This document shows positions 6,243-56,813 of a DNA stretch of 61,798 bases, in pieces. The notes beneath the pieces are model-generated. The model saw only the letters and a list, made by a program, of their open reading frames with translations, was not told where the DNA came from and did not search any database. This DNA is from a virus (Duplodnaviria; Heunggongvirae; Uroviricota; Caudoviricetes). How positions within the stretch are numbered: the stretch's first letter is position 1; each line of letters begins with the position of its first letter. The translations under genes were made by a program, and so were the position numbers. The stretch is from IMG/VR virus record IMGVR_UViG_3300033233_000007. One strand, given 5' to 3'.

Positions 6243-6988
6243 TGCCATTTTTTATGCCCTCGTTCGTCACGACGCGCGACGCCTACACGCCGCAGCAATC
6301 TTCGCGCGTTGAGGCCGGCTATCGCGGGGCGCCGATCTACTCGAGCCGCGAAATGGCCAAGGGAGTGAAGATCGATCCATACCAGGGGCCCGCCCGCGGC
6401 GTGGCCGGACTCGGGCAGGAAGTCTATCTGGGCAAGCTCAGAATGCAGACGGGCGACCGAAGCGCGCTCTTCCATCGCACGCAGGACCTGTGGACGGGTC
6501 TTGACGCGCTGAAGAAACGAATCGCAGGAATCGGCGACGACGTCTGGAAGGTCGCGCAGAACCGGGTCTCGGGCCTGCCGACGAAGACGGCGGCTCTTGC
6601 CATGGTCGAGTCCCCGTCGAAAATTCAGTCCCTCTGGGACGCGTTCGACAAGACCTGCGAGACGTCGTGGATTCCCGGCTTCGACCTCGCGTGTAACAAC
6701 GACGCTTACGCCCAACTCGTCGCCGTGATGGACGCCGCGTCGGCTCACCAGATCGTGGTTGAGCGGCACGTCGCCACCGTCCTTAATACGGTCACGACGG
6801 ACGAACAGAGAAAAATCAGAGACGTGGGGTTCCAGCGGTTCATGGAACTTCAGGTCGAGCGCGTCAAGGAGCCCGCGCCCGTCGGCGGCTTCAGTCTTGG
6901 TGGCATCCTCACGATCGCCGGCATCGGCCTCGCCGCCTTCCTCTTTCTTCCGCGCGTCAGCGAATTCATGAGAGCGGTCAAAAAGTAA
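6242..6988 (+). CDS. Putative virion membrane protein, C-terminal TM
   Basis: TAATG coupling; TM LGGILTIAGIGLAAFLFL. Confidence 0.75.
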   Translation: MPFFMPSFVTTRDAYTPQQSSRVEAGYRGAPIYSSREMAKGVKIDPYQGPARGVAGLGQEVYLGKLRMQTGDRSALFHRTQDLWTGLDALKKRIAGIGDDVWKVAQNRVSGLPTKTAALAMVESPSKIQSLWDAFDKTCETSWIPGFDLACNNDAYAQLVAVMDAASAHQIVVERHVATVLNTVTTDEQRKIRDVGFQRFMELQVERVKEPAPVGGFSLGGILTIAGIGLAAFLFLPRVSEFMRAVKK

Positions 6989-9039
6989 TGGCCACCATCG
7001 ACGCAGACCTTCGCGAGCACCTCGGCCCCGACGCCGTGCCGCAGAGCATCGAGCGCAATCCGCTTCTCATGGCGGTGAGAAACCCGGTCGAGATCACGCC
7101 GGCAAACGTGGAAGACTACGGCGGGCGATATATCGAGACGACGCACGGCGACATGAAGATGACCCACTACGGCCCCGGAAGTTTTTACATCACGCTCACG
7201 CCGATCGTGAAAGGCGAAAAAGCGACCCGCGATCTCACGTGGGGGCCTATCGGCAAGAACAAGGCGATTGAGATCATGAACCGCCTCATCTCGGACAAGC
7301 CGCTTCGCGGAAATCCGATCCAGTGGACGCCGGGCGTCGGATACGAAGACGTGCCGGCGCGCGGAAATCGCATCATCGGCCAAGCGACGTCTCATGTCGT
7401 GAAACGTCCCTTTGGTCGCAGCTACTACTATTGGAGTTGGAAGGGTCAGACGGCCCCGCGCGGCCCCGTGGGGGCTGCAGGTTTTCTGACAGGCGACGAG
7501 ATGATTGATATGCAAACTGGGGAGGTGTTCGTGCGCGAAAATCCGCTTCTCATGGCCGTGTCAAACCCCGGTCCCGTCGAAGTCACGTTCGTGGACCAAA
7601 CGGGGACGAGGACCGTGCGCGCCCGCGTCGGCGGCGACGTCACGGTCCGCAGCATCCTGCCCGCGATCATCACGCGCATGGGCCTGCCGACGACGAGTCC
7701 TGACGGCCAGGCCATGAGCTATTCGCTGGATTACAAGGAAGGCGGGGTCCGCCTTTTGGAAGATCAGACGCTTGCAGACGCCGGCGTCGTCACGGGTCAT
7801 CACCTCATTGTCTTCCCGGAGATCGTGGCGGGGAATCCTGTACATGTTTGCTGCAATCCGCGCACGGGCGTGTGCGACAACCCGCGGCATAGAAATCCGC
7901 TGGACGCTAGAGAAAAATCCGACGTCATCAGCCGCGCGGCTTCCGCATACAGCCGCTCCGCCGTCGCTCCTCGAAGGATCGACGCGGAATACTATCGCGG
8001 GTACGGCCGCGGCATGATGGACGTCGCGGACAGGCATTCGGCCGCGGAGACATATTATCCCGTCGCCGCCAATCCAAAGCGCGCGGGCGGCGTTACCGTT
8101 CTTCCGTACCGCTGGATCGCATCTCTCGAAGAGGCCGGGATCAGGGTTCCTTCCTACGGAGTTTCGGGTCACATGGCCGCTTTCAAGAGGCCCGTGCCTC
8201 TGGCCCACGTCAAGACTATGCTTGAAGAGTACGCGCAAAAGAAGTTGAAGGGACTCCCTCGAGTGGCAGACTTTCTGACCAGGCAGGAGCGGAAGGCGGT
8301 TATTCGAGGAATGATAGATCGTGCGCTTCGCGATGCCGAAACGGGGCAGTTTCATGAAATCGAGAGAGCTTCCGGCGGCTCCAATCCGGGTGAAGACGCC
8401 CTCTTCGACAACCCCTACTACGTCGCCCACCGCGAGGCCATGCCTGCGGAGACCGACATCGTCCGCAGCCTTCGCCGTCGTCGCGACACCTTCCAGCGGT
8501 TTGAGCGTGCGCCGGGGCCCCGCTACGGCGGCGCCGTCGGGCCGTTCCGCACGGGCGACGAGGCAATCGACAGTTGGGGATGGGCCGCGCCTATGGCGAG
8601 GGGCGATGAAGAGCGTGAGATGAGGGTCGCCGCCAACCCGACGCTCGCCGCGGCGCCGTTTCATCCCGGAAAGAAAATCTCCGTAGGCGAGTTCGAGTCG
8701 TGGCTCTCCGCAAACGGCAACCCCGAGGAAAAGCGCGAGTACGAAAGGTCCAAAGCCGCGTACAAGAAGTTTCATCTTGGCGCGGAGCCGAAGTCCATCA
8801 CCCGCGAAGTCATGGACGTCGGCCTGAACCACGGCGTCGTCACGGACCGCGGCTTCGGCTACGGGCTGGGGCAGTCCACGCATGAAACGTACTTCGCGCC
8901 GAAGAATTCGAAAAAAGCGGGCACGGTCTACGTGCACAAATGGGGAACCCGACCCGAGGCCATTGCGACTTCGGACGGCCGGGTCATCATGAAGCCGCTT
9001 AAAGGCACGGCCAGGATCGACGACTGGCTGCGCGGTTAA
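6988..9039 (+). CDS. Asn-Pro-punctuated polyprotein containing a ubiquitin-like domain (7567-7833)
   Basis: 14 NP dipeptides; VEVTFVDQTG..YSL..QTLADAGV..LIVFPEIVAG resembles EsaB/YukD-type Ubl. Confidence 0.8.
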   Translation: MATIDADLREHLGPDAVPQSIERNPLLMAVRNPVEITPANVEDYGGRYIETTHGDMKMTHYGPGSFYITLTPIVKGEKATRDLTWGPIGKNKAIEIMNRLISDKPLRGNPIQWTPGVGYEDVPARGNRIIGQATSHVVKRPFGRSYYYWSWKGQTAPRGPVGAAGFLTGDEMIDMQTGEVFVRENPLLMAVSNPGPVEVTFVDQTGTRTVRARVGGDVTVRSILPAIITRMGLPTTSPDGQAMSYSLDYKEGGVRLLEDQTLADAGVVTGHHLIVFPEIVAGNPVHVCCNPRTGVCDNPRHRNPLDAREKSDVISRAASAYSRSAVAPRRIDAEYYRGYGRGMMDVADRHSAAETYYPVAANPKRAGGVTVLPYRWIASLEEAGIRVPSYGVSGHMAAFKRPVPLAHVKTMLEEYAQKKLKGLPRVADFLTRQERKAVIRGMIDRALRDAETGQFHEIERASGGSNPGEDALFDNPYYVAHREAMPAETDIVRSLRRRRDTFQRFERAPGPRYGGAVGPFRTGDEAIDSWGWAAPMARGDEEREMRVAANPTLAAAPFHPGKKISVGEFESWLSANGNPEEKREYERSKAAYKKFHLGAEPKSITREVMDVGLNHGVVTDRGFGYGLGQSTHETYFAPKNSKKAGTVYVHKWGTRPEAIATSDGRVIMKPLKGTARIDDWLRG

Positions 9040-9050
9040 GAAAAGGAGGC

Positions 9051-10517
9051 ATGAAGATGCTCGAGATGTTCGTGTTAAATCCTCCTCCGCGAAGCGCCAA
9101 ACGCAGGCGCAGCCGCCGGAATCCGTGGGAGAAAATGCGGTCTCCCGGACGTCGGTTCTGGCGGTTCCGCGGTCGGAAGGGGCAGTTCGCGAAGCGGTCG
9201 GCAGGCAAGATGAGAATGAATCCGCGCCGGCGCCGCCGGAAGAATCCGTGGGTCCACCTCACCCGCCCCGCTCGCACGTTCTACCGCTATCGCGGAGCCA
9301 AAGGAAAGTTCCGCAAGCGCGTTCGCCGTGGTCGCGCGAGCGCCTACGGTCTCAACGCTCCCCGTCGACGCCTGCGTAGGCGTCATGCGGTGCGCCGTCA
9401 TCCTCGGACGGTGTCTCGCAGGAATCCAAGGTCGAGGAAACATGGAGGCAGCAGAATGGCCAAGCGTGCCACTCGGCGTCGCCGGGGAACCCGTCGGTCG
9501 TATCGGAGGAATGCCGTTCTCCCGATCCCGGCCAACGTCAACCCGCCGCGTCGCCGCTCTCGCCGCCGCTACCGCAGTAACGCCAAGCGTGGATGGGCGC
9601 TTTACCGCTATCCCGCCCGTTCGGCGTACCACTACGGCGGCTCTCGCGGCAAGTTCATCAAGCGTCGCAAGGGCAAGCCCAGCGCCGCCGCGGCCGCGAC
9701 CGTTGTCGCGAATCCGCGCCGGCGTCGTCGGCGTCACTACGCCGCCAACGTCAGCCGATCCGCCCCCCGTCGCCGTTACGCCAAGCGCCGGTCCCACGCC
9801 CGCCGCAATCCCTATCGCGGCCCGTGGAGCTACCGCCGCAAGGCGTATCGCGTTCCGGGTGGTCGCATCCGCGTTCGCCGGCACCACTACCGCAAGCCGG
9901 GGTATCGCCGGAATCCGATCCTGCCGTTCCCCGTCGAGGTCGGCCTGAACCCGTACGCGGGTAACAACGTCCTCGCGGGTGTCGTCGCCCCGTTCCAGCG
10001 GGCCATGGACTTGTCCTTCGTCACCGGAGAACTCCTGCCCATGGCGGGCGGTTACTTCGGCTCGAAGGCCGTGGGTCGCATGGCCACGGACCTCGTGGGC
10101 GTTCCGTACGACGGCGTGTACAAGTACGTCGCCAACCTTCTGGGCGCGGGCGTCCTTTCCACGGGCGTCAGCATGTTCCTGAAGGATTCGGCGATGGCCA
10201 GTCGCGTCCTCGGCGGAGGCCTGTTCGCGATCTTCGTTGACCTGCTGAAGGATATCGGCGTCACCGGCGCTCTCGGCATCGGCGACCTCGGCGACATCAG
10301 CGATTCGATGAAGAGTCAGATCGTCGACAGCGTCCGCGCGCAACTCCACGGCACGGACGACTACCTCACGTACGAAGCGTACGGCGGTTCGCCTCGTCTG
10401 GCGGACTACGCGTCGGCGGAAGCCCTCAACGCCGCGCCTCATCTGGCGCAGGCCGCGGGCGGCGTCGCGAACATGTCGACCTACGTTGACGAGTTCTCCG
10501 ACGCTCAGTTGGTGTAA
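9051..10517 (+). CDS. Arg-rich protamine-like core protein with RRNP repeats and C-terminal membrane domain
   Basis: Extreme Arg content in N-terminal 60 percent, 10 NP sites, hydrophobic helices C-terminally. Confidence 0.8.
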   Translation: MKMLEMFVLNPPPRSAKRRRSRRNPWEKMRSPGRRFWRFRGRKGQFAKRSAGKMRMNPRRRRRKNPWVHLTRPARTFYRYRGAKGKFRKRVRRGRASAYGLNAPRRRLRRRHAVRRHPRTVSRRNPRSRKHGGSRMAKRATRRRRGTRRSYRRNAVLPIPANVNPPRRRSRRRYRSNAKRGWALYRYPARSAYHYGGSRGKFIKRRKGKPSAAAAATVVANPRRRRRRHYAANVSRSAPRRRYAKRRSHARRNPYRGPWSYRRKAYRVPGGRIRVRRHHYRKPGYRRNPILPFPVEVGLNPYAGNNVLAGVVAPFQRAMDLSFVTGELLPMAGGYFGSKAVGRMATDLVGVPYDGVYKYVANLLGAGVLSTGVSMFLKDSAMASRVLGGGLFAIFVDLLKDIGVTGALGIGDLGDISDSMKSQIVDSVRAQLHGTDDYLTYEAYGGSPRLADYASAEALNAAPHLAQAAGGVANMSTYVDEFSDAQLV

Positions 10518-12542: not shown

Positions 12543-12635
12543 CGCCGGACAGCGGCGTGTGCGAGACACTTTTCCCCGATCCTGGACAACAGGACGGGGA
12601 TGGCAAAGCGCTTACTGCGGACAACGCAGAAGCGC
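12543..12635 (+). promoter_or_regulatory. Three tandem hairpins with GACA(A/G) pentaloops directly before an AAGGAGG RBS
   Basis: CGCCG-GACAG-CGGCG; TCCTG-GACAA-CAGGA; CTGCG-GACAA-CGCAG. Confidence 0.7.
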
Positions 12636-12647
12636 AAGGAGGAAGAG

Positions 12648-13535
12648 ATGATCCCGACTTATGTCGGCGAGAAGGGCCCGGACGGCCAGATCACCCGCGC
12701 CTGGATTAACCCCGCCAAGCGCCACGTCCGCCCGTACTGGCTGACGACCGAGCCCGACACCATTCTGGTTCCGCCGCTGACGACGAGCCTGCCGCAGATC
12801 ATGCCCATCGACACGCAAGGGCATTTCGAAGCGTTCTCCGTCTGGTTCCAGAGCGATGGGCCTTTCACGGTCACGTTCTTCGACCCCAGTAACGGCCGCT
12901 TCTGGCAGAACCGCGAACTCCACATTAACACCGTGGCCGGCGGAAACCTCGCGACGGTCGGCGGCGGCGCGTCGACGTTCGGCTTCATCCTCCCCGAAAG
13001 CTACTTCTTCAACGTCGAGGACGCCGCGCGTTCGCTCCTCGTGGCGTACCGCGACCTTTCGGGCGTCGCCAACAACATCCGCATGCTCCTCTTCGGCCGC
13101 CGCATCTACAACCGCGAAAGCTCGCCGGACGTGCAGGAAGAGTTCCGCAAGCTCTATCAGAGGAAGGAGCGCACGACCGCCTACTTCCTGACGACGGACC
13201 TGCCCGTCGTTCTTCCCGCGTCGGCCGCCGTGACGACCTTCCAGATCAGGAATACCGACGAAGCGGACATGGAGGCTTTCAAAATCACGGCATCGTCGAC
13301 GGCGCCTTTTGCGTTCCGCCTCCGCGACCGCGCGTCGAACCGCACGCTCTCTAACGGCTTCATCCACCAATTTAACGGCGCCGGCAACGGCTTCGTGCCG
13401 TTCGTGCTGTCGAGCGCGGAGACCTGGCTGATCGAACGCAACTACCAGGTGGAGGTCGACTTCATCAACCTCGTGCCGCTGGCGACTAACACGGTCTTTT
13501 TCACTTTGAGCGGACGGAGGCTCTACTATGCCTAA
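12648..13535 (+). CDS. Putative tandem (double) jelly-roll capsid protein
   Basis: Internal duplication: (P/A)Y(W/F)LTT..FEA/MEA..N....G...N....L.GRR(I/L)Y twice; start at AAGGAGG RBS. Confidence 0.65.
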   Translation: MIPTYVGEKGPDGQITRAWINPAKRHVRPYWLTTEPDTILVPPLTTSLPQIMPIDTQGHFEAFSVWFQSDGPFTVTFFDPSNGRFWQNRELHINTVAGGNLATVGGGASTFGFILPESYFFNVEDAARSLLVAYRDLSGVANNIRMLLFGRRIYNRESSPDVQEEFRKLYQRKERTTAYFLTTDLPVVLPASAAVTTFQIRNTDEADMEAFKITASSTAPFAFRLRDRASNRTLSNGFIHQFNGAGNGFVPFVLSSAETWLIERNYQVEVDFINLVPLATNTVFFTLSGRRLYYA

Positions 13536-31314: not shown

Positions 31315-32190
31315 ATGCCCCGCTATGATATCGGAGTACGGACGAACAAAGGACGCATGCAGGTTTTCAGTATCAACGCCGGCAGCGCCGCCGAGGCCAA
31401 GGCCAAACTGCGTAAGCGCCTCTACGCCGACAATCCCTCCCGCGGCAAGTACGTCCGTGAGCGCAAGGCCGACCCCACGCTCTTCGACCATCGCAGCTTC
31501 AGGACGAAGACCGTGAACGACCATCGCGTCGTCGTCGCCTGCCCCAAGGGGAAGTGGAACGCGCGTACGGGTCGCTGTACGGTCGGCATGCGCGCGCAAA
31601 CGCTCTTGCATCCCATGAAGAAAGGCGTGAAGAGGAATCCGGCCGAGTACACGATCGGTCGCGGACCTACGGAACGGAGGATCAGCGCGGCGCAGAAGCG
31701 GCGGATGGCGTGGAATCCTCGATCAAAAAGAATCACGGCGGAATATGCCATTCAACAGGCTTTCCTGTACGCGAGAGACGGACTCACGGGGGGCGCGGAA
31801 GAATGGCTCCAAATGGCCGTGAGACGTGGTGCGTCACCGTCAAAGGTCGCTGGAGTCAAGCGTTCTATAACGACCGCGAGAGAAAAGCGAAAGATTCGGC
31901 AGAGTTGGGAGCGCGAAGCCGTTCATAAAAACCCCGCCGAACTCGATCCCGTAAACGGCGGCGCCGCATTCGAGCAGGACTGGCAGGCCTTCGAAGAGGG
32001 CGCCATCTACAAGATCGCCGCCCGGTACGACAGCTTCAAGCCGCAGTACGCCAAGAGCCAGACGGAGATGACGCGGACGTTCCGCGAGTTTTCGAAGAAG
32101 TACCCGCAGGAGCGAATCGACGTCGTTGACATGCGGGCGCCGCGTCACGTCATGGAGAACCCGCCACGAGGCATCGAATTTCTCGACTAG
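31315..32190 (+). CDS. Basic NP-punctuated polyprotein
   Basis: 5 NP sites separating short modules. Confidence 0.7.
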   Translation: MPRYDIGVRTNKGRMQVFSINAGSAAEAKAKLRKRLYADNPSRGKYVRERKADPTLFDHRSFRTKTVNDHRVVVACPKGKWNARTGRCTVGMRAQTLLHPMKKGVKRNPAEYTIGRGPTERRISAAQKRRMAWNPRSKRITAEYAIQQAFLYARDGLTGGAEEWLQMAVRRGASPSKVAGVKRSITTAREKRKIRQSWEREAVHKNPAELDPVNGGAAFEQDWQAFEEGAIYKIAARYDSFKPQYAKSQTEMTRTFREFSKKYPQERIDVVDMRAPRHVMENPPRGIEFLD

Positions 32191-32196
32191 GAAGAC

Positions 32197-33603
32197 GTGA
32201 CCAGAAATCCCATGTACGAATCCCCGCGCAGTCGCCGGCTTCGCTTCGACCTCGAGGGCATGAAGCGCTTGAAGGCGGAAAGTACGATCTTCGGCTTCAC
32301 GGCGACCGGCGATCCGCCGGAGCGGTATGTCGTCACGTTCAAAGGCAAGAGTTTTTCCGGGCCCGATAAGGTCGTCAACCATCAGGAAATCGAAATCGAC
32401 CTGGGTGCGGAGTACCCCCGAGGCATGCCTAACATCCAATGGAAGAGCAAAGTCTTCCACCCCAACATTTCGTCAAACGGCGGCGTGTGCCTCGGCAACT
32501 ACTTCTCCGAGTGGTCGCCTGCAGCCGGCGTCGTGGGCATCTGCGGCATTCTCTGGGACATGGCCCGATGGGCCAACTTCAACATCAACAGCCCCTATAA
32601 CGGCGACGCCGCTATGTGGTTTCGCCATCAAACGAAGTACCGCTTCCCCATTGACGTGCGATCCCTCAGAGACAAGGTTGACCCGCCATCGGACGCCGTG
32701 TCATCGAAGCCCGCGTGCGCGTCGCCGCCGGATGAGGATATTCTTATCATTGAGAATCCGCCTCCTCCGCTTCAGGACGGCGACCGCGTTCGTCATCTCC
32801 GAAAAGAGGGATGGGTCGGCACGGTCGAGCACGTTGGCCATCCTATCGGCGGGTTTAAGGGCGTGTCGGTTCTGTGGGATCACCAAGCCATGCTCGGGCC
32901 CGACCCATCGGTGCGGCCGTCCGATGTCGTGAAGATTTCGGAGAACCCGCGTGTGCCTCGGTCGGGCAAACCGAGATCGTGGATGCCGAAGATGGTGCAG
33001 TGGAGTTTCCACGAGCCCGCGGCAAAGGACATCCAAGCCCATCTCCGTTCTTTCGGCCTTTACGCCGACATCTCGATGCAAAGCAGACGCATCCGCGAGG
33101 AGCCGTACGTCGAACACGTCTACAGGGTCATCGTACCCGCGTGGCAACTCGATCAGGCCAAGAGAATCCTGAAATCTGGAAAACACGGATGGAACCCGCT
33201 GACCGCGGACGAGCGCGCCACCCTTCAGCGCCGCAGCGCCTCTTTCGCCCGCCGTGCCGACGACTACCCGCTCGACACGCCGCACCGTGCTTACTGGACC
33301 GCGCGGCAACATGAGGCGAGGACGTTGTCGGAAGCGGCGGACGTGGCCGACCTCGAACTGCCCAACGCCGTCGCCGCGAATCCCGACGACCTCTTCTGGA
33401 AAGTCCGCGACTGGCTCGACAATCTTTCCGACATCGCCGACCTCCATAGAGAGAAGTACCCCCACGAGTCCGTGAAGACCGCGCTGCGTTACGCCGAACG
33501 CGTCATGCTCTCCCGCTATGGCCGCCCCGATCCCGAGTTCTTGAAAGAGGCCAGGCGGCAGATCGGAGAACTCAGAGAATTCGCAGAGTCGGAGGGAGCG
33601 TAG
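32197..33603 (+). CDS. NP-punctuated polyprotein with N-terminal E2/UBC domain
   Basis: EYPRGMP..FHPNISSNGGVCLG (catalytic Cys codon 32488-90)..SPYNGDAA. Confidence 0.9.
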   Translation: MTRNPMYESPRSRRLRFDLEGMKRLKAESTIFGFTATGDPPERYVVTFKGKSFSGPDKVVNHQEIEIDLGAEYPRGMPNIQWKSKVFHPNISSNGGVCLGNYFSEWSPAAGVVGICGILWDMARWANFNINSPYNGDAAMWFRHQTKYRFPIDVRSLRDKVDPPSDAVSSKPACASPPDEDILIIENPPPPLQDGDRVRHLRKEGWVGTVEHVGHPIGGFKGVSVLWDHQAMLGPDPSVRPSDVVKISENPRVPRSGKPRSWMPKMVQWSFHEPAAKDIQAHLRSFGLYADISMQSRRIREEPYVEHVYRVIVPAWQLDQAKRILKSGKHGWNPLTADERATLQRRSASFARRADDYPLDTPHRAYWTARQHEARTLSEAADVADLELPNAVAANPDDLFWKVRDWLDNLSDIADLHREKYPHESVKTALRYAERVMLSRYGRPDPEFLKEARRQIGELREFAESEGA

Positions 33604-33604
33604 C

Positions 33605-34600
33605 GTGGACGACTGGAAGTGGTATCAACTGAAGTACGACGTGGCTTCCAATACCTACGTCGTCGCTAATCAGATTCTCTCGTGGGCGACGCGCGTTTTT
33701 CCGCACGAGCTTGAGCAGTACGGCATCCATTCCCAAAGCGACATCGCCGCCGACGCCAGACGCCGCCCCGGCGTGTGGATGCTGTTCTTTTCGGACCAAG
33801 TAGACCGCGGGCTCTTCGACGAGAACCCCTACAGCCCGAATCTCACGTACCATGAGGCCGAAGAGCTTTTCGCCAAGGCGCGGAAGCACTACAGAGACGT
33901 GCCTGTATTCGAGATCAGAACCGTCGAGCCCGAAGACCTCTTCGGCGAAGAGCGCACGGAGCGCGTGAAGGTCGGCACGAAGCGAGAGCTTTCCGTCCAA
34001 GACATGCGCCGCCCGCTTGGCTCGAACACATGGCTCGAGAAGCGCGACGGCGATTACGCGGTCAAGCTCTACTGGACGGACGTCGTGACGGTTCATCCCG
34101 ACGGGACCTATACGATCCAAACGGGCGGCTGGCATACGAACGTGACGAGAGACCGGATCAACATGATTCTGCAGCACCATGGCCTCAATGTCTGGAGCCG
34201 GAGAGTGCGCACGGGCACAAAGGTCGTCCCGCCCGATGAACTCTTCGGCAGAGAAAGGCGGATCGGCCAATACGAGACCGACTGGTGGGTCTTCCGCTAC
34301 GACGGAAAAGACTGGCAGCCGACGACGCCTGTTGGAGACGGCGTGCGCATCGACGCCATGGGCCGGAAGATGCCGTGGCTTCATCGCGTTCAAAGGTTCC
34401 ACCGTAACCCCGGAGACAACGTCGATCGTGCGTACGGCCGCTGGCAGGAGACCATGAAGCTCCGCAAGCGCTGGCCTTTCAAGAGCCCGCCGCCTCATCC
34501 CATGTACACGGCACAGGAGATCGCCGGCATGGAGCGCTTGAGTGATGAAGAGACGCAGGAGCTTTACGCCATGGCGCGCAAGGCGCTGGGGGCGGTGTAG
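33605..34600 (+). CDS. Polyprotein with GLFDENP junction
   Basis: Second module has TGGWHTNVTRDRIN motif. Confidence 0.75.
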   Translation: MDDWKWYQLKYDVASNTYVVANQILSWATRVFPHELEQYGIHSQSDIAADARRRPGVWMLFFSDQVDRGLFDENPYSPNLTYHEAEELFAKARKHYRDVPVFEIRTVEPEDLFGEERTERVKVGTKRELSVQDMRRPLGSNTWLEKRDGDYAVKLYWTDVVTVHPDGTYTIQTGGWHTNVTRDRINMILQHHGLNVWSRRVRTGTKVVPPDELFGRERRIGQYETDWWVFRYDGKDWQPTTPVGDGVRIDAMGRKMPWLHRVQRFHRNPGDNVDRAYGRWQETMKLRKRWPFKSPPPHPMYTAQEIAGMERLSDEETQELYAMARKALGAV

Positions 34601-35907
34601 TGGAGGCGTTCGAAAGGGAAGAGTATTTCTATAAGGACGCTCCGCCTCTCGATCTGGGTAACTGGCATCGCAGTAACGATTACTGGTATTCGCACGGGCG
34701 GTACGACATCAAAACGTTCAAGGGAACGGAGTTTGAAACGGTCTATGGGGATAAATGGATTCTGGCCGGGCCACCTAAAGGCCGGCACATCGCTTATGCC
34801 GATCGACCCGATCAACTGACGAAAAAGGCGCACGATCATTATCACGAAGGATTCGGCCTCTTCGACGAGAACCCCTGTGTCGATACGCGCCGTACTGGAC
34901 GATTCAGGTTTGTTGGATGGGCATACTCCCCCGGTTTTCATTCAGTCAGCGCTGTCTTTGAAGACCCCGAAGGCGCGAGCACCGGCTTCTTTTTCTACAC
35001 GTCCGTGGGCCAGCACGCAGAGGCGGGTCATAAATATGTTACGCATCTTCCTCGAAGGGAACGATGGGTAAGCCGTGTAGAAGCAGAAAAGCTCGATCCC
35101 TCGACCGTCACCGAAGTGACGAGCATGTACGGACGGATACCGGGTGTGGGTGAGGGTGGTCTCTTCGACGAGAACCCCGTTGACCCGCCGAAGCGCGGCC
35201 AGGCTTACACGGTCGGTAGAGACTACGACAGGCTTTGGGTCATCGGCGTCGAGCCGCGTCGTTACGAAAATGTCGTCAGGCTCAGCACAAGGGCGCCGAC
35301 GGCGCGCAGAAGCTTGGACGTGATTACACACAGCTACACCCTTGCCAACTTCATGTCACTCGTTCAATCCGGCTGGTGGCGTCGTGCGCCCGAAAGAGAC
35401 GTGGAGCGCGGCCTCTTCGATGAGAACCCCGCCCGACCCGACTACAACGTCCTGCCAGTGTTCGCCAGCGCTCCCATCACCGGCTACATGGACGGCGGTC
35501 GCGTCAAAGAGCGGTTCCTCAATCACGCGGCAAACTACCTTCGTACGGTTGGCCGTCACCTGCTCGCGCGCGGCATGTTCGAGCAGAGCGTCCATATCAA
35601 CCGCGGCGGCGTCGCCGTCAGTGGCGAAGTCTACGGTGAGTTCCGCTCGTCGCATGAAGACGTTGGCGTCTTCGTGGAGATTTCATCGACGCCCGTGTTT
35701 CAAAACCGGCCCGACAGCGTCATCATCCGCGCGGTCTGGCGGGCTCGAAGGCGCGAGCGTATGCACACGCCGGAAGGCCGTAACAACTGGATCGTCGCTA
35801 ACAGAAATGCCGGCGACTTGGCTAACGATCTTTACGGCCTGCAGCGCCTCGGCGTCCGAGAAGGCGTGGCGCAAGGCGTTGAAGATCGCGGCCTTTTTGA
35901 CGAGTAG
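34600..35907 (+). CDS. Four-module polyprotein (3x GLFDENP, terminal RGLFDE)
   Basis: Junctions at about 34855, 35158 and 35404; tag 35884-35904. Confidence 0.8.
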   Translation: MEAFEREEYFYKDAPPLDLGNWHRSNDYWYSHGRYDIKTFKGTEFETVYGDKWILAGPPKGRHIAYADRPDQLTKKAHDHYHEGFGLFDENPCVDTRRTGRFRFVGWAYSPGFHSVSAVFEDPEGASTGFFFYTSVGQHAEAGHKYVTHLPRRERWVSRVEAEKLDPSTVTEVTSMYGRIPGVGEGGLFDENPVDPPKRGQAYTVGRDYDRLWVIGVEPRRYENVVRLSTRAPTARRSLDVITHSYTLANFMSLVQSGWWRRAPERDVERGLFDENPARPDYNVLPVFASAPITGYMDGGRVKERFLNHAANYLRTVGRHLLARGMFEQSVHINRGGVAVSGEVYGEFRSSHEDVGVFVEISSTPVFQNRPDSVIIRAVWRARRRERMHTPEGRNNWIVANRNAGDLANDLYGLQRLGVREGVAQGVEDRGLFDE

Positions 35908-35910
35908 AGC

Positions 35911-36192
35911 ATGACCCCCACCGAACTCATTCTCATGGCCAACAAGCACTACCCGGAAGGGTTTCTCCTTCGGTATTTTGACGAAAGGACGGGTCGTAAG
36001 AAGGAGGGTCACGGTGACACGCTGGCGTTCTCGATCGTCTTGAACCTCGTGGAGACGTTTGACGAGTCCCTGACGAGCGAAGACCAGGCCGCTGAAGGCG
36101 TTCGCGTCATCGACAGCTTGGTCGACGATCTCGAGCGCGTCAAGCGGGGGCTCCTCGCAGAACCGCCGGAAAGGGGCCTGTTCGATGAGTAG
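35911..36192 (+). CDS. Hypothetical protein ending ERGLFDE
   Basis: ORF. Confidence 0.75.
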   Translation: MTPTELILMANKHYPEGFLLRYFDERTGRKKEGHGDTLAFSIVLNLVETFDESLTSEDQAAEGVRVIDSLVDDLERVKRGLLAEPPERGLFDE

Positions 36193-36856
36193 TCCAAGAA
36201 AACCCTACTACACCGACGCCGAGTATCAAAAGCTAGCGGAGGAGGCTGTGGCTCGCTATGCCCCCAGCGCCCGCGAGGCCCGGTCCTTTGCGTACCGCGG
36301 CGACCTCCCGCTCGGCAAGACGTGGGCGTACACGTTCGGCATGAGTCGCGACAGCGGTCTTCTTGAGCAGAGCAACTTCGACGTGATTTCGCAGAACCTC
36401 AAGGAAGCGTTCCCCGAAGACGTCGAGATCGAACGATCTAGCCATTGGGCCGTCGGATGGATGGATCAAATTGCCGTTCACATGCTCGACGATAGCGGCC
36501 GCGCCACACCTGCAGGTCGTCATGTGCTGGACTGGAAGGCGAAGCTCCTGGACTATCCCGTGGCGGACGAGGAGCACTACAGCGAACGGCAAACCGAAGC
36601 CACGTTCGAGAATATCGTCAGCGCTCTTGGAGATGTCGGGTTCACTCGCGGAGACAGCAAAATGAAAGAAGTCGCTGGAGAGGTTTGGCAGTGGTTCTCC
36701 GACAACAACGAGCGCGCCCTTGACGACGTCGACGATCAGGGGGGCTACCCGAGCGAAGAAGAGACCAGAGAAGCCCTCAAGGACCTCGACTACTTCGAAA
36801 CCGACGATGGATGGGTAAAAGAGCGCGGTCTCTTTGATGAACCTGTGGAGGACTAA
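36185..36856 (+). CDS. Acidic protein (HWAVGW motif) ending ERGLFDEPVED
   Basis: ORF. Confidence 0.75.
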   Translation: MSSPRKPYYTDAEYQKLAEEAVARYAPSAREARSFAYRGDLPLGKTWAYTFGMSRDSGLLEQSNFDVISQNLKEAFPEDVEIERSSHWAVGWMDQIAVHMLDDSGRATPAGRHVLDWKAKLLDYPVADEEHYSERQTEATFENIVSALGDVGFTRGDSKMKEVAGEVWQWFSDNNERALDDVDDQGGYPSEEETREALKDLDYFETDDGWVKERGLFDEPVED

Positions 36857-37362
36857 TGCGTACAAACCCCGTTCAAATTCGTCGCGTCTACGTCAAGACG
36901 ATGATCGATGAGAATCCTGATCTCTCGCATCTCGGCAAGTACAGCGACACGCCTGGACCTTATGCCATTGATCGCGAGGAGCGCGGAGACATGAGGCGCG
37001 GCGAGTTTCGCTACTGGAATCCCGCCATGACTGCTGAAGAAACGGGCAACCCCGATTCCGTCGAACAGGACTACAAGCGCCATGAAGCCTACGGCGATGA
37101 TCTGTGGCAGGCCATGGGTATCCGAGCCTGCGCTGAAGTCGTGGCGGGCGACACGACTCAGACGATCTGTTCGGCGGGACTCTGGGGAATCGAATCGGAT
37201 TCTGAGCCCACGTACTTCACGGGAGTTGCCGAAGAGCAGCTTGAGGAACTTTACACGATCCTCCAAGACTTCGGTATCCCTCAAGCCAGATCGCGATCCG
37301 TTCGCGTCGAGTACCCGGAAAACATCGAGCCGGCTGAGGAGCGGGGGCTGTTCGATGAGTAG
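36856..37362 (+). CDS. Acidic protein (GLWGIESD motif), MRTNP start, ERGLFDE end
   Basis: ORF. Confidence 0.75.
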   Translation: MRTNPVQIRRVYVKTMIDENPDLSHLGKYSDTPGPYAIDREERGDMRRGEFRYWNPAMTAEETGNPDSVEQDYKRHEAYGDDLWQAMGIRACAEVVAGDTTQTICSAGLWGIESDSEPTYFTGVAEEQLEELYTILQDFGIPQARSRSVRVEYPENIEPAEERGLFDE

Positions 37363-38193: not shown

Positions 38194-38840
38194 ACCATTT
38201 GACGCTCGCGGATATTGGCGCCGCACCCGCGCGGCCCCAATATCCGAGCAAAAAGCTTGAGGAGATGACGGAAGCCGAGCTTTCGATCTTCCGCAAGCGC
38301 TGCACGATCGCCGTCGAACTCGCCGCAGCGAAGACGCGAAAGAAGGTCGCCGACGCAAAGGCCGAGCGATTTGAAAACGAGGCCCGTCAGGTCCTTTCGG
38401 AATTCAACAGGCGCCTGGACGAACTCTACAAGGGCCGGTGGACGAGCGGGCAGCAGAAGGCCCTGTACGACTGGTGCGCGGCCGAGTTTGAGAAGCACCG
38501 TGTGGTCGTCCGCAAAGCTCGCGCGGAGTCTGAAAAGGCTGGAGACATCATGAACAAGCAGGCCTTGGCCTGGGTCAAGGCAGACCCTCGTGCGCCGGTC
38601 TACGCCGCCCTCGTGCGGAGTCTGTACCCGACGGGAGAAGACGTTCTGGCCGTCTTGGCCCTGTGTCCCCGTTTGTTTCTCATGAAGAAACCCGCGGCCG
38701 CCGCATTTCCCCTGCCGCCCGTCGCTATTCCAGAGCCGCCGACCGTTGTGACGCCGTTTGAGCCGTCGCCGCTTGTCCCTGCGTCGATCCAGATCGTCCG
38801 GTGGCCGGCGCCTTCGACTTTTTCGATGACCAGGCCATGA
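38190..38840 (+). CDS. Coiled-coil hypothetical protein
   Basis: ORF. Confidence 0.65.
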   Translation: MNHLTLADIGAAPARPQYPSKKLEEMTEAELSIFRKRCTIAVELAAAKTRKKVADAKAERFENEARQVLSEFNRRLDELYKGRWTSGQQKALYDWCAAEFEKHRVVVRKARAESEKAGDIMNKQALAWVKADPRAPVYAALVRSLYPTGEDVLAVLALCPRLFLMKKPAAAAFPLPPVAIPEPPTVVTPFEPSPLVPASIQIVRWPAPSTFSMTRP

Positions 38841-39109
38841 CCGTCTGGATTCTCCACTATTCGCACAAGCGCGGCGACGACATCACCGTGTACGGCAATC
38901 AAGATTCGGCGCTCTTGGCCGCCGTAGAGATCATCGACAGATGGAGCGACGAAGAGATCGCTGACGACAGCATCGAGGCCGAGATCAAGGCGCTCGTGCG
39001 CCGGCGACGCTATGCGGAGGCCATCGGGCTCTACAACGAAAGCACGGGCGAGAACATCGCGGTATCCAAGTACGAGGTTCACGGGCCTCCTGAGGGGCTT
39101 TTCGAATGA
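38837..39109 (+). CDS. Hypothetical protein ending PPEGLFE
   Basis: Tag variant. Confidence 0.7.
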   Translation: MTVWILHYSHKRGDDITVYGNQDSALLAAVEIIDRWSDEEIADDSIEAEIKALVRRRRYAEAIGLYNESTGENIAVSKYEVHGPPEGLFE

Positions 39110-46995: not shown

Positions 46996-47210
46996 AGTAC
47001 GCCAGTTTTTCTTGATCCACTTGACTCGCTGACGGACATCGGTTTCCTCAGTACGGATGGCTCGCTGTCAATGGACGGTTTTCCCACCTGCAACGGCTCG
47101 CTCTCGCTTGTCGGTTTTCTTGCATCGGACGGCTCGCTGTTTCGCAACGGTTTTCTTATGACGGGCGGCTCGCTGATCCATGACGGTTTGCTCCCGCTTC
47201 CCGGCTACTT
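46986..47210 (-). ncRNA. TIGR-like guide array C (6 units) directly downstream of the Tas-like gene
   Basis: Same repeats; first repeat overlaps the Tas-like stop codon. Confidence 0.92.
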
Positions 47211-56153: not shown

Positions 56154-56342
56154 TTATTGAACGCCGACTGCGGCACCGTGTCCGCAGTCGCAGGAATCGC
56201 AGTTGAGACAGGCCTGAAATCCGTGCTCGCACGCAAGCTCGACGGACAGTTCAGCCGCACGGCGGAAGCGGCATCCCTTCTTGTGCTCGACCTTGATCGC
56301 GCAAACGCACGAGACGAGGTTGTCGCATTTGAGGCAGATCAT
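56154..56342 (-). CDS. Cys-rich small protein
   Basis: Multiple Cys in 62 aa. Confidence 0.5.
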   Translation of the reverse strand: MICLKCDNLVSCVCAIKVEHKKGCRFRRAAELSVELACEHGFQACLNCDSCDCGHGAAVGVQ

Positions 56343-56626
56343 GCGCCACCTTGAATAACGTCCACGATCTCTTTGACCGCCATGCAAACCATGCAACAGG
56401 CTCCGAAATCGCAAAACTCTACGTCAAGGCGCGTGGCCTCGCCGCATCGGCCGGCCTTGGCCGCGGCGATGCACCTGGCGCGCTCACGTTCAATGACGTT
56501 TTTGATACAGCCAGTGCAGGCATGATGCCGCCCAGGTGGACCGTGGAAGATGTCCTGCTTCCCCGCTTCAGCGCACTGCTGAATCGCCTCCACCGCCAAC
56601 GCCTCCGGGCTCAAGACCTTACTCAT
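56339..56626 (-). CDS. Cys-containing hypothetical protein
   Basis: Coupled ORF. Confidence 0.55.
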   Translation of the reverse strand: MSKVLSPEALAVEAIQQCAEAGKQDIFHGPPGRHHACTGCIKNVIERERARCIAAAKAGRCGEATRLDVEFCDFGACCMVCMAVKEIVDVIQGGA

Positions 56627-56813
56627 GCTTGATCTCCTCAACTTCACACGTTTTTACGAGCGCAAACGCCGCGTCATACGACTCGAACTTCAGAAGGACC
56701 CGGATCGTCGCGTCGCGCCGACAAGGCCGATGCACGAGGCAGTCCGACCAGTCCGCGCGAAGTCGGCGCTCGGCGCTCCAAGACACATGGCAGCGGCAGT
56801 TTTTGTTTACCAC
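56619..56813 (-). CDS. Hypothetical protein
   Basis: Short ORF filling gap. Confidence 0.4.
   Translation of the reverse strand: MVNKNCRCHVSWSAERRLRADWSDCLVHRPCRRDATIRVLLKFESYDAAFALVKTCEVEEIKHE

Follow-up and report, generated by a model that had tools for sequence, protein, structure and literature searches.

A canonical E2 domain and two ubiquitin-like proteins of planctomycete type in a tailed bacteriophage

What use might a bacteriophage have for a ubiquitin-conjugating (E2) domain? The question is raised by a gene at positions 32197–33603 (+ strand) of IMGVR_UViG_3300033233_000007, a 61,798-nucleotide stretch of DNA from a large, uncultured tailed phage (Caudoviricetes) that is referred to here, at its full length, as the window, and in which a first-pass annotation had recognized an E2 domain from the letters of the DNA. 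E2 enzymes, the bacterial operon to which this one is related and E2-encoding viruses of eukaryotes are all already known. The novelty, as judged by sequence comparison, lies in the presence in a bacteriophage of a canonical HPN-Cys E2 together with two ubiquitin-like proteins (Ubls), all derived from a bacterial eukaryote-like ubiquitination operon, and a literature search found no report of a phage-encoded canonical E2. Since no activating enzyme (E1) was found in 81 kb of DNA of this phage, we propose that its E2/Ubl kit probably either exploits or blocks the protein-tagging machinery of the host.

The E2 domain and the gene that carries it

The stretch 32197–32760 comprises a complete canonical UBC/E2 domain, which matches the Pfam family UQ_con (PF00179) with a score of 49.1 bits (cutoff 27; E=5.6e-13). 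Its catalytic core was placed at 32212–32676 (+ strand; residues 1–155 of the public protein call, P0002) by Pfam, a phmmer search of the PDB, AlphaFold and Foldseek. In the phmmer alignment, residues 5–140 correspond to residues 4–133 of UBE2A/B (E=1.6e-10) with HPN and the cysteine in register, HPNISSNGGVC of the phage protein being aligned with HPNVYADGSIC of UBE2A/B and the cysteine keeping the spacing from HPN (7–8 residues) that is expected of an E2. The active site (32458–32490, + strand) thus consists of HPN at 32458–32466 and the catalytic cysteine codon, TGC, at 32488–32490, and the first-pass annotation had noted the HPN...VC motif and placed the cysteine exactly. This cysteine is C93 in P0002 and Cys98 when numbered from the GTG start discussed below. 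An AlphaFold model of residues 1–190, built on 22 homologues, has a predicted local distance difference test score (pLDDT) of 82.7 and a predicted template modelling score of 0.75, with pLDDT >90 over most of the core, and has the UBC fold, with a helix at residues 5–22, four strands, and helices at 106–118 and 131–139. Its best Foldseek matches are to Rad6/UBE2A, with template modelling (TM) scores of 0.69–0.71 by target, and among solved structures the nearest are Rad6-type E2s of eukaryotes rather than any from bacteria. Prediction of the entire protein from its single sequence was poor (pLDDT 39). The profile match and the model together indicate that the stretch is a real E2 domain rather than a chance motif.

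Across an alignment of the 22 closest homologues, H83, P84, N85 and C93 (P0002 numbering) are invariant. All 36 invariant columns of this 22-sequence alignment are retained by the phage E2, and they include P5, R8, R9, L10 and D13 of helix 1, the YPR..P loop, HPN, C93, the W-x-P loop and SPYN. The phage protein also keeps 53 of the 60 columns that are ≥90% conserved in non-phage members, the seven changes being conservative, and its E1- and E3-facing residues are conserved. The sole close relative, P0003 (L002), is encoded on a 2.3-kb contig and is 86% identical in the E2 core; over the whole protein, P0003 and P0002 are 64% identical in the best BLASTP alignment and 77% as listed in the search. 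The ratio of nonsynonymous to synonymous substitution rates (dN/dS) between the two is 0.16 for the E2 core and 0.08–0.29 for the other modules, in a single pairwise comparison that gives module values only where dS could be estimated. The phage E2 is under purifying selection. As one part of the overall proposal developed below, we incline to the view that the gene encodes a predicted catalytically competent E2.

Counted from a GTG codon at 32197, the open reading frame (ORF) list and its translation give a fusion protein of 468 residues, with five modules split by Asn-Pro (NP) dipeptides. The public gene call, which is identical on two public contigs, begins instead at an ATG at 32212, five codons downstream, and yields the 463-residue P0002. 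Homology with P0003, the second phage copy, sets in at the V-x-R-N-P codons in DNA and protein alike, and so speaks for the GTG start. Read from GTG 32197, the frame gives (M)TRNP-MYESPRSRRL as in the first-pass annotation, and the idea expressed there that the methionine after TRNP is the donor gene's own agrees with the chromosomal homologues, which likewise start with M-x-x-SPR-x-RRL. The same annotation had described the E2 as a polyprotein module. It is indeed the N-terminal module of its own 468-residue multi-module protein, but a multi-gene or genome-long polyprotein is contradicted by the TAG stop of the upstream gene (32188–32190, + strand), which lies in the frame of the E2 gene two codons before the GTG. 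TAG terminates 33 of the 93 predicted genes in the window and is therefore an ordinary stop here. Given this in-frame TAG, and flanking genes that lie in other frames with starts of their own, the E2 gene is an ordinary separate gene. Recoding of TAG to give a true polyprotein was considered and rejected, since a third of the genes end in TAG and the flanking ones differ in frame.

Chromosomal E2s of this family consist of the core, a disordered linker and then one or two copies of the motif [DE][DE]-I-[VL]-F-[IL]-[DE], and in 60 of the 69 chromosomal ORFs examined the motif ends no more than four residues before the stop. The phage protein has this native C-terminal motif as an acidic-hydrophobic tail, DEDILIIE (32731–32754, + strand), which is internal here and is followed directly by an NP junction (32755–32760, + strand) and 281 more residues. 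With the native N-terminus, the core and the family's C-terminal tail all present, the earlier description of the E2 as captured intact is apt, and the ENP junction that went with it is found at 32752–32760. By analogy with SUMO-interaction motifs, the tail may be a short docking peptide that forms a strand. E2 subfamilies outside the operon described below have the tail internally with extra domains after it and no NP, so the tail needs no free C-terminus. Further NP junctions in the gene are at 32206–32211, 32944–32949, 33193–33198 and 33379–33384 (all + strand).

The four C-terminal modules (32761–33600, + strand) are orphans, the first proline-led and beta-rich, the second DUF2007-like alpha/beta and the last two helical. 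They have no Pfam match and no significant PHROG match, one weak WhiB-like match (E=0.0034) and, for residues 254–325, a weak DUF2007-like structural lead in the Atlas. Their sole homologue is P0003, and they are known in this phage and its relative only. The arrangement suggests that these four phage-specific modules were fused behind Asn-Pro after capture of a whole host E2. Two candidate relatives of module 2 were rejected: P0153, which matches around it, is an unrelated repeat protein in which the NP is part of an Ig-like repeat, and no relation was found to the neighbouring Kyano_Gp96-like gene.

Kinship with a Planctomycetota operon and the two Ubl copies

An exhaustive phmmer search returned 1,549 relatives of the phage E2 (54 of them below 1e-30), typically 200–330 residues long with the E2 domain N-terminal. 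Among genomes taken at one per species, more than 515 contain a relative; the best 80 are 42–52% identical to the phage protein and almost all from Planctomycetota, including Pirellulaceae, Isosphaeraceae, Mariniblastus, Singulisphaera and Tautonia. The operon of Singulisphaera sp. Ch08 (L023) encodes a Prok-RING_1 protein, a 99-residue YukD-type Ubl ending in PEVVAG, an E2 that is 45% identical to the phage E2 over 184 residues, a ThiF-type E1 and a JAB peptidase. When the surroundings of the E2 in the best 80 loci were searched by tblastn, the Ubl was found in 78, the ThiF-type E1 in 72, the JAB in 72 and the Prok-RING_1 protein in at least 43, the gaps falling mostly at contig ends. The operon was found in 35 of 301 genomes of an even sample of Planctomycetota, which is a lower bound because only eight candidates were scored per genome, and it looks vertically inherited within Pirellulaceae and Isosphaeraceae.

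The phage E2 shares with the E2s of this operon the M-x-x-SPR-x-RRL helix, HPN, the cysteine, the W-x-P loop and the acidic-hydrophobic tail, and the matching Ubl ends in PE[IV]VAG. Unlike them, the phage gene lies outside an operon, with no E1 or JAB found and one weak RING-like match, and its internal tail is followed by NP and four phage-only modules. The tree also sets it apart, placing the phage pair on its own branch outside a chromosomal clade of 69 rows (96% support), which implies that the capture was not recent or was made from an unsampled lineage. Other Planctomycetota (L153–L162) have a second layout in which the Ubl, E1 and JAB genes are adjacent and the E2 gene is either inside the cluster or 4–5 kb off; most E2s of this layout end in a CxxC...CxxC zinc ribbon, not an acidic-hydrophobic tail. 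The phage proteins fit the first layout (RING-Ubl-E2-E1-JAB) and not the second. By these similarities, the ancestor of the phage E2 came from a RING-Ubl-E2-E1-JAB operon of Planctomycetota, and Planctomycetota are probably the hosts of the phage.

Two Ubls accompany the E2. The first is an 88-residue module (7570–7833, + strand) embedded in ORF 6988–9039, with NP before it and an end, PEIVAG, that is again followed by NP. It matches Pfam YukD (E=5e-11) and is 59–65% identical, without gaps, to the Ubls of the host operons. With Singulisphaera proteins as tblastn queries against the window, the Ubl matched 7561–7833 (61.5% identity, E=8.8e-35) and the E2 matched 32212–32727 (45% identity). The Ubl that had been noticed some 25 kb upstream of the E2 is therefore real. 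The second is a standalone gene (P0167, 90 residues; L163:6996–7268, − strand) about 1.2 kb beyond the left end of the window. It is carried by an 81-kb contig of the same sample, which is 100% identical to the window in the overlap and reaches 18.3 kb further left. P0167 ends in PEIVAG-stop; its identity reaches 79% with the Ubls of planctomycete operons and is 66–67% with the embedded phage Ubl. The Ubl copies are 24 kb and ∼33 kb from the E2 gene, whose neighbours are unrelated phage genes and not an operon. The standalone Ubl shares its block of small genes, left of the window, with a weak precomputed Pfam match to Tad4 (L164:13480–13812).

The remaining operon components were sought in the same DNA. 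No tblastn match to the E1, JAB or RING protein of the Singulisphaera operon was found in the window, and Pfam found no ThiF and no JAB domain in its 92 other ORFs, so that both methods agree with the first-pass annotation, in which no E1 or JAB was visible. Beyond the window, where that annotation had suggested looking for an E1, tblastn and precomputed Pfam listings again gave no E1 or JAB in the parts of the 81-kb contig that were searched, including its left extension. Among the matches listed in a search for homologues of the host E1, the places were filled by host orthologues at 73–88% identity. With neither E1 nor JAB in the searched DNA, dependence on a host E1 would be the natural conclusion.

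An E2 and ubiquitin are a textbook pair. The predicted complex of the phage E2 (residues 1–190) with the embedded Ubl scored 0.45, against 0.01 for the best control, with runs that agree in at least 52% of contacts and a partner pLDDT of at least 76. Of 80 solved complexes, 58 reached the mark applied to such scores, as did 2 of 110 mismatched pairs. The passes at or below 0.60 comprise only 7 of the 80 solved complexes plus both mismatches, and unless there were prior grounds for the pairing, a score of this kind is likelier to be wrong than correct. The pass may also reflect memory, because the pair is such a familiar one. Prediction thus lends the E2–Ubl complex weak support.

The phage E2 has few counterparts in other viral DNA. 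The whole protein had no tblastn match in 50,697 phage records, and a scan of IMG/VR with the single protein likewise gave no match; a scan of IMG/VR with the family gave giant-virus-type E2s only, at ≤43% identity, and JGI metagenome contigs contained nothing nearer than 52%. Related E2s fused to extra domains outside the operon keep HPN and the cysteine and also look active, as in a 449-residue E2-NUDIX fusion (L152:6445–7794) that has a tail-like motif, PELIIMG. The 48-kb contig (L152) encoding this fusion consists of small same-strand genes with almost no family matches and no PHROG match, and may be another phage or mobile element.

Proposed retargeting, or possible disabling, of the host pathway

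The function that we favour, with some reserve, is that a host-derived E2/Ubl kit, charged by the host E1, retargets the host conjugation pathway to substrates of the phage's choosing. In an infected cell, a Ubl, either the host's or a phage copy, would be adenylated by the host E1 and transferred to the phage E2 in thioester linkage. The C-terminal modules of this E2 would then steer the Ubl onto those substrates. The host conjugation pathway would in this way be reprogrammed, as it is by E2-encoding viruses of eukaryotes. Charging by the host E1, the identity of the targets, the benefit to the phage and any cleavage at NP are what we infer. That the phage keeps an E2 and two Ubls under selection, with no E1 found, is an indirect sign that the pathway matters in infection, and the host E1 combined with the phage E2 and Ubl provides an experimental handle.

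Virus-borne E2s have a precedent in eukaryotes. I215L of African swine fever virus (PDB 7wlh) is among the Foldseek matches of the phage E2, and the E2s of this virus and of giant viruses are, like the phage E2, canonical HPN-Cys enzymes; they are carried by viruses that have no E1, and none was found in the 81 kb of phage DNA. Such viruses of eukaryotes rely on the host E1. Unlike these ubiquitin users, the phage would act in a bacterial host with a YukD-like Ubl and an E2 that is fused to phage modules. If the proposal is true, the rule that viruses hijack ubiquitination extends from eukaryotic viruses to bacteriophages, and the phage is the prokaryotic counterpart of the E2- and ubiquitin-encoding viruses of eukaryotes.

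On the cellular side, RING-Ubl-E2-E1-JAB operons are the nearest bacterial look-alikes of eukaryotic ubiquitination, and the papers found on them record them from comparative genomics only. The work on related bacterial operons is reportedly that of Burroughs, Iyer and Aravind. Such operons in Planctomycetes, Actinobacteria and Acidobacteria are recorded as uncharacterized (PMC4197634). A cascade of ubiquitin, E1, E2, a small RING protein and Rpn11 from Caldiarchaeum subterraneum has been reconstituted in vitro (PMC5654768), and it has the same five-part gene set as the host operon, with a canonical UBC E2. It differs in being archaeal and cellular and in using a ubiquitin-type rather than a YukD-type Ubl. 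Its Rpn11 trims the tail of pro-ubiquitin and cuts a linear fusion of ubiquitin to green fluorescent protein (PMC5654768), which is a precedent for the release of a Ubl embedded in a larger protein. Because the archaeal enzyme acts in this way, the embedded phage Ubl could, by analogy, be released by the host JAB.

Several points weigh against retargeting by way of the host E1. Both the host operon and the phage protein are known as sequences only, and the host was assigned from gene similarity and G+C content. The phage E2 branches outside the chromosomal clade, and both its donor lineage and its fit with any given host E1 are putative. The negative result for E1 and JAB spans 81 kb, and at least 63 kb of the phage genome lies outside. 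One window ORF has a weak zf_RING-like Pfam match (E=0.002), of which about 0.2 would be expected by chance over 92 proteins. Substrate targeting by the C-terminal modules is a guess, these modules having no recognizable function, and the conserved catalytic residues would fit a Ubl sink or trap equally well. As a separate observation, another window ORF has a weak transglutaminase-core match (E=8e-4), near chance level over 92 proteins; the candidate ORFs for the zf_RING-like and transglutaminase-core matches are 49182–49523 and 56339–56647, both on the − strand, and either match could be of importance as an E3 or a protease.

The sink is the most substantial of the alternatives, although we consider it unlikely. 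It supposes that the host Ubl operon is antiviral and that the phage E2 and Ubls disable it, whether by competing for the host E1 or RING protein, by accepting Ubl and discharging it unproductively, or by flooding the pathway with a divergent Ubl. The lack of E1, JAB or a clear RING protein in 81 kb of phage DNA would suit such a role, as would the conserved E1- and E3-facing residues, which a competitor needs, and the presence of the standalone Ubl in a block of small same-strand genes with a weak Tad4-like match. The patchy occurrence of the operon (in 35 genomes at least of the 301) is as expected of an accessory system, and characterized bacterial E1/E2/Ubl systems (CBASS Cap2 and Bil) serve anti-phage immunity. 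However, no result marks the host operon as a defence system. It looks vertically inherited in Pirellulaceae and Isosphaeraceae, PADLOC saw it only through generic ThiF and JAB similarity and had no match to the phage proteins, and a pure competitor has no need of four conserved modules under purifying selection. The data do not separate retargeting from a sink, catalytic residues and docking surfaces being kept in both.

The relationship to the known defence systems can be defined more closely. Bil (BilABCD), CBASS Cap2 and Bub have a comparable bacterial E1/E2/Ubl/peptidase logic and are likewise tied to phage conflict, and the first-pass annotation had framed its proposal in terms of Bil and Bub. 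PADLOC, in a 2023 library that is without Bub, gave no match of the phage E2 or of either phage Ubl to Bil or CBASS models. Bub works through oxyester rather than thioester intermediates, whereas the phage E2 has a canonical catalytic cysteine. The frame was therefore set aside: the donor is a eukaryote-like Planctomycetota operon, and the source system, as its sequence relationships indicate, is not Bil, CBASS or Bub.

Asn-Pro junctions and the surrounding genes

The NP dipeptide is not confined to the E2 gene. The predicted proteins of the window contain 78 NP sites, compared with 31.2±5.3 after shuffling (maximum 47 in 500 shuffles), an approximately 2.5-fold enrichment that is concentrated in few proteins: ORF 6988–9039, with the embedded Ubl, has 14 sites, the Arg-rich ORF 9051–10517, with repeated RRNP, has 10, ORF 31315–32190 and the E2 gene have five each and ORF 36856–37362 has four. 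Six different codon pairs encode the dipeptide, which argues that selection acts on the peptide. Three observations place NP at a native C-terminus. The embedded Ubl reads PEIVAG-NP where host Ubls read PEIVAG-stop, NP follows the E2 tail where host E2s stop, and a third sequence, GLFDE, occurs in both settings: (E/D)RGLFDE is the natural C-terminus of the genes 34600–35907, 35911–36192 and 36856–37362, while GLFDE lies four residues from the end of gene 36185–36856 and directly before NP at four internal sites (window 33605–37362). A variant, PEGLFE, ends gene 38837–39109. In addition, what distinguishes the two phage E2 proteins is entire modules running from one NP to the next, of which P0003 has two extra in front and one inserted. 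The pattern fits processing just before Asn-Pro, and the division of proteins into modules by NP may be a further novelty of this phage lineage in its own right.

Cutting at this position, if it takes place, would regenerate native C-termini, namely the activatable glycine of the Ubl, the E2 tail and the GLFDE tags, and would be a processing rule undescribed for phages. We know of no enzyme that cleaves before Asn-Pro and of no precedent for such specificity, and no protease for the NP junctions was found in the Pfam and PHROG annotation near the E2 gene. That the phage reprograms a bacterial eukaryote-like cascade with its own E2 and Ubls, delivered as modules cut just before Asn-Pro, is accordingly a tentative extension of the retargeting proposal and one that we hold to be rather doubtful.

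The same pattern bears on a further alternative, in which NP-delimited modules including the E2 are cut apart by a protease or by themselves, packaged in the virion and injected, so that they act as infection begins. The enrichment of NP in few proteins, its placement exactly after the native ends of the Ubl (VAG) and the E2 tail, the occurrence of GLFDE at natural C-termini or directly before NP, the exchange of entire NP-to-NP modules between the two phage copies and the use of six codon pairs would all be expected of such cargo. Against it, the E2 gene is set off by a start of its own and by an upstream stop, other family members carry the tail internally without NP, and the cleavage itself is putative. 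Moreover, Pfam and PHROG gave the genes near the E2 no annotation as protease, capsid, portal or any other virion component, and the earlier suggestion that the E2 acts from the moment of entry or resides in virions is unsupported. We consider the cargo explanation improbable, though the NP pattern leaves it some merit. Least credible of all is a chance passenger with no role in the phage, for although phages acquire host genes and a single phage relative is known, the E2 is only 42–52% identical to host copies and yet has kept all key residues, with a dN/dS of 0.16, in two diverged phages with different fusions, and has two Ubl copies alongside.

The upstream gene (31315–32190, + strand; 291 residues) is itself of interest for its end. 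Its final eight residues, PRGIEFLD, follow an NP and precede the stop, with GIEFLD encoded at 32170–32187. This ending (window 32155–32190) resembles the E2-family tail, for example GIEFVE in P0005 and GITFLD in P0017, both chromosomal members. The ORF had no homologue in five operon-bearing planctomycete genomes, and the related contig carrying P0003 has a different upstream gene. In ORF 6988–9039, a spacer of the form NP-LLMAV(R/S)-NP occurs twice, at 7057–7086 (residues 24–33) and 7540–7569 (residues 185–194), the second directly preceding the embedded Ubl.

The window as a whole has the character of phage DNA. It is gene-dense with 60% G+C, and most of its genes lie on the + strand in the first ∼42 kb and on the − strand thereafter. 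PHROG matches include a tail protein, an HNH endonuclease, a methyltransferase and a transposase, and Pfam adds a phage integrase and a protein of P22 type. In the annotation of the searched phage DNA, no gene was recognized as encoding a capsid, portal or terminase protein. Atlas look-alikes of two large ORFs fall in clusters that are 96–100% viral, mostly from tailed phages, and ORF 12600–13535 has an Atlas feature score of 0.95 and a TM-score of 0.82. No RNA runs matching the stretch are listed, and the only sequencing run that matches it is a sediment metagenome, which may be the source sample. The − strand arm (43–62 kb) contains genes for a peptide deformylase (Pfam E=2.5e-43), a phage integrase-family protein, NADAR and YAcAr/SLOG proteins, and a transposase-like gene at 47205–48221.

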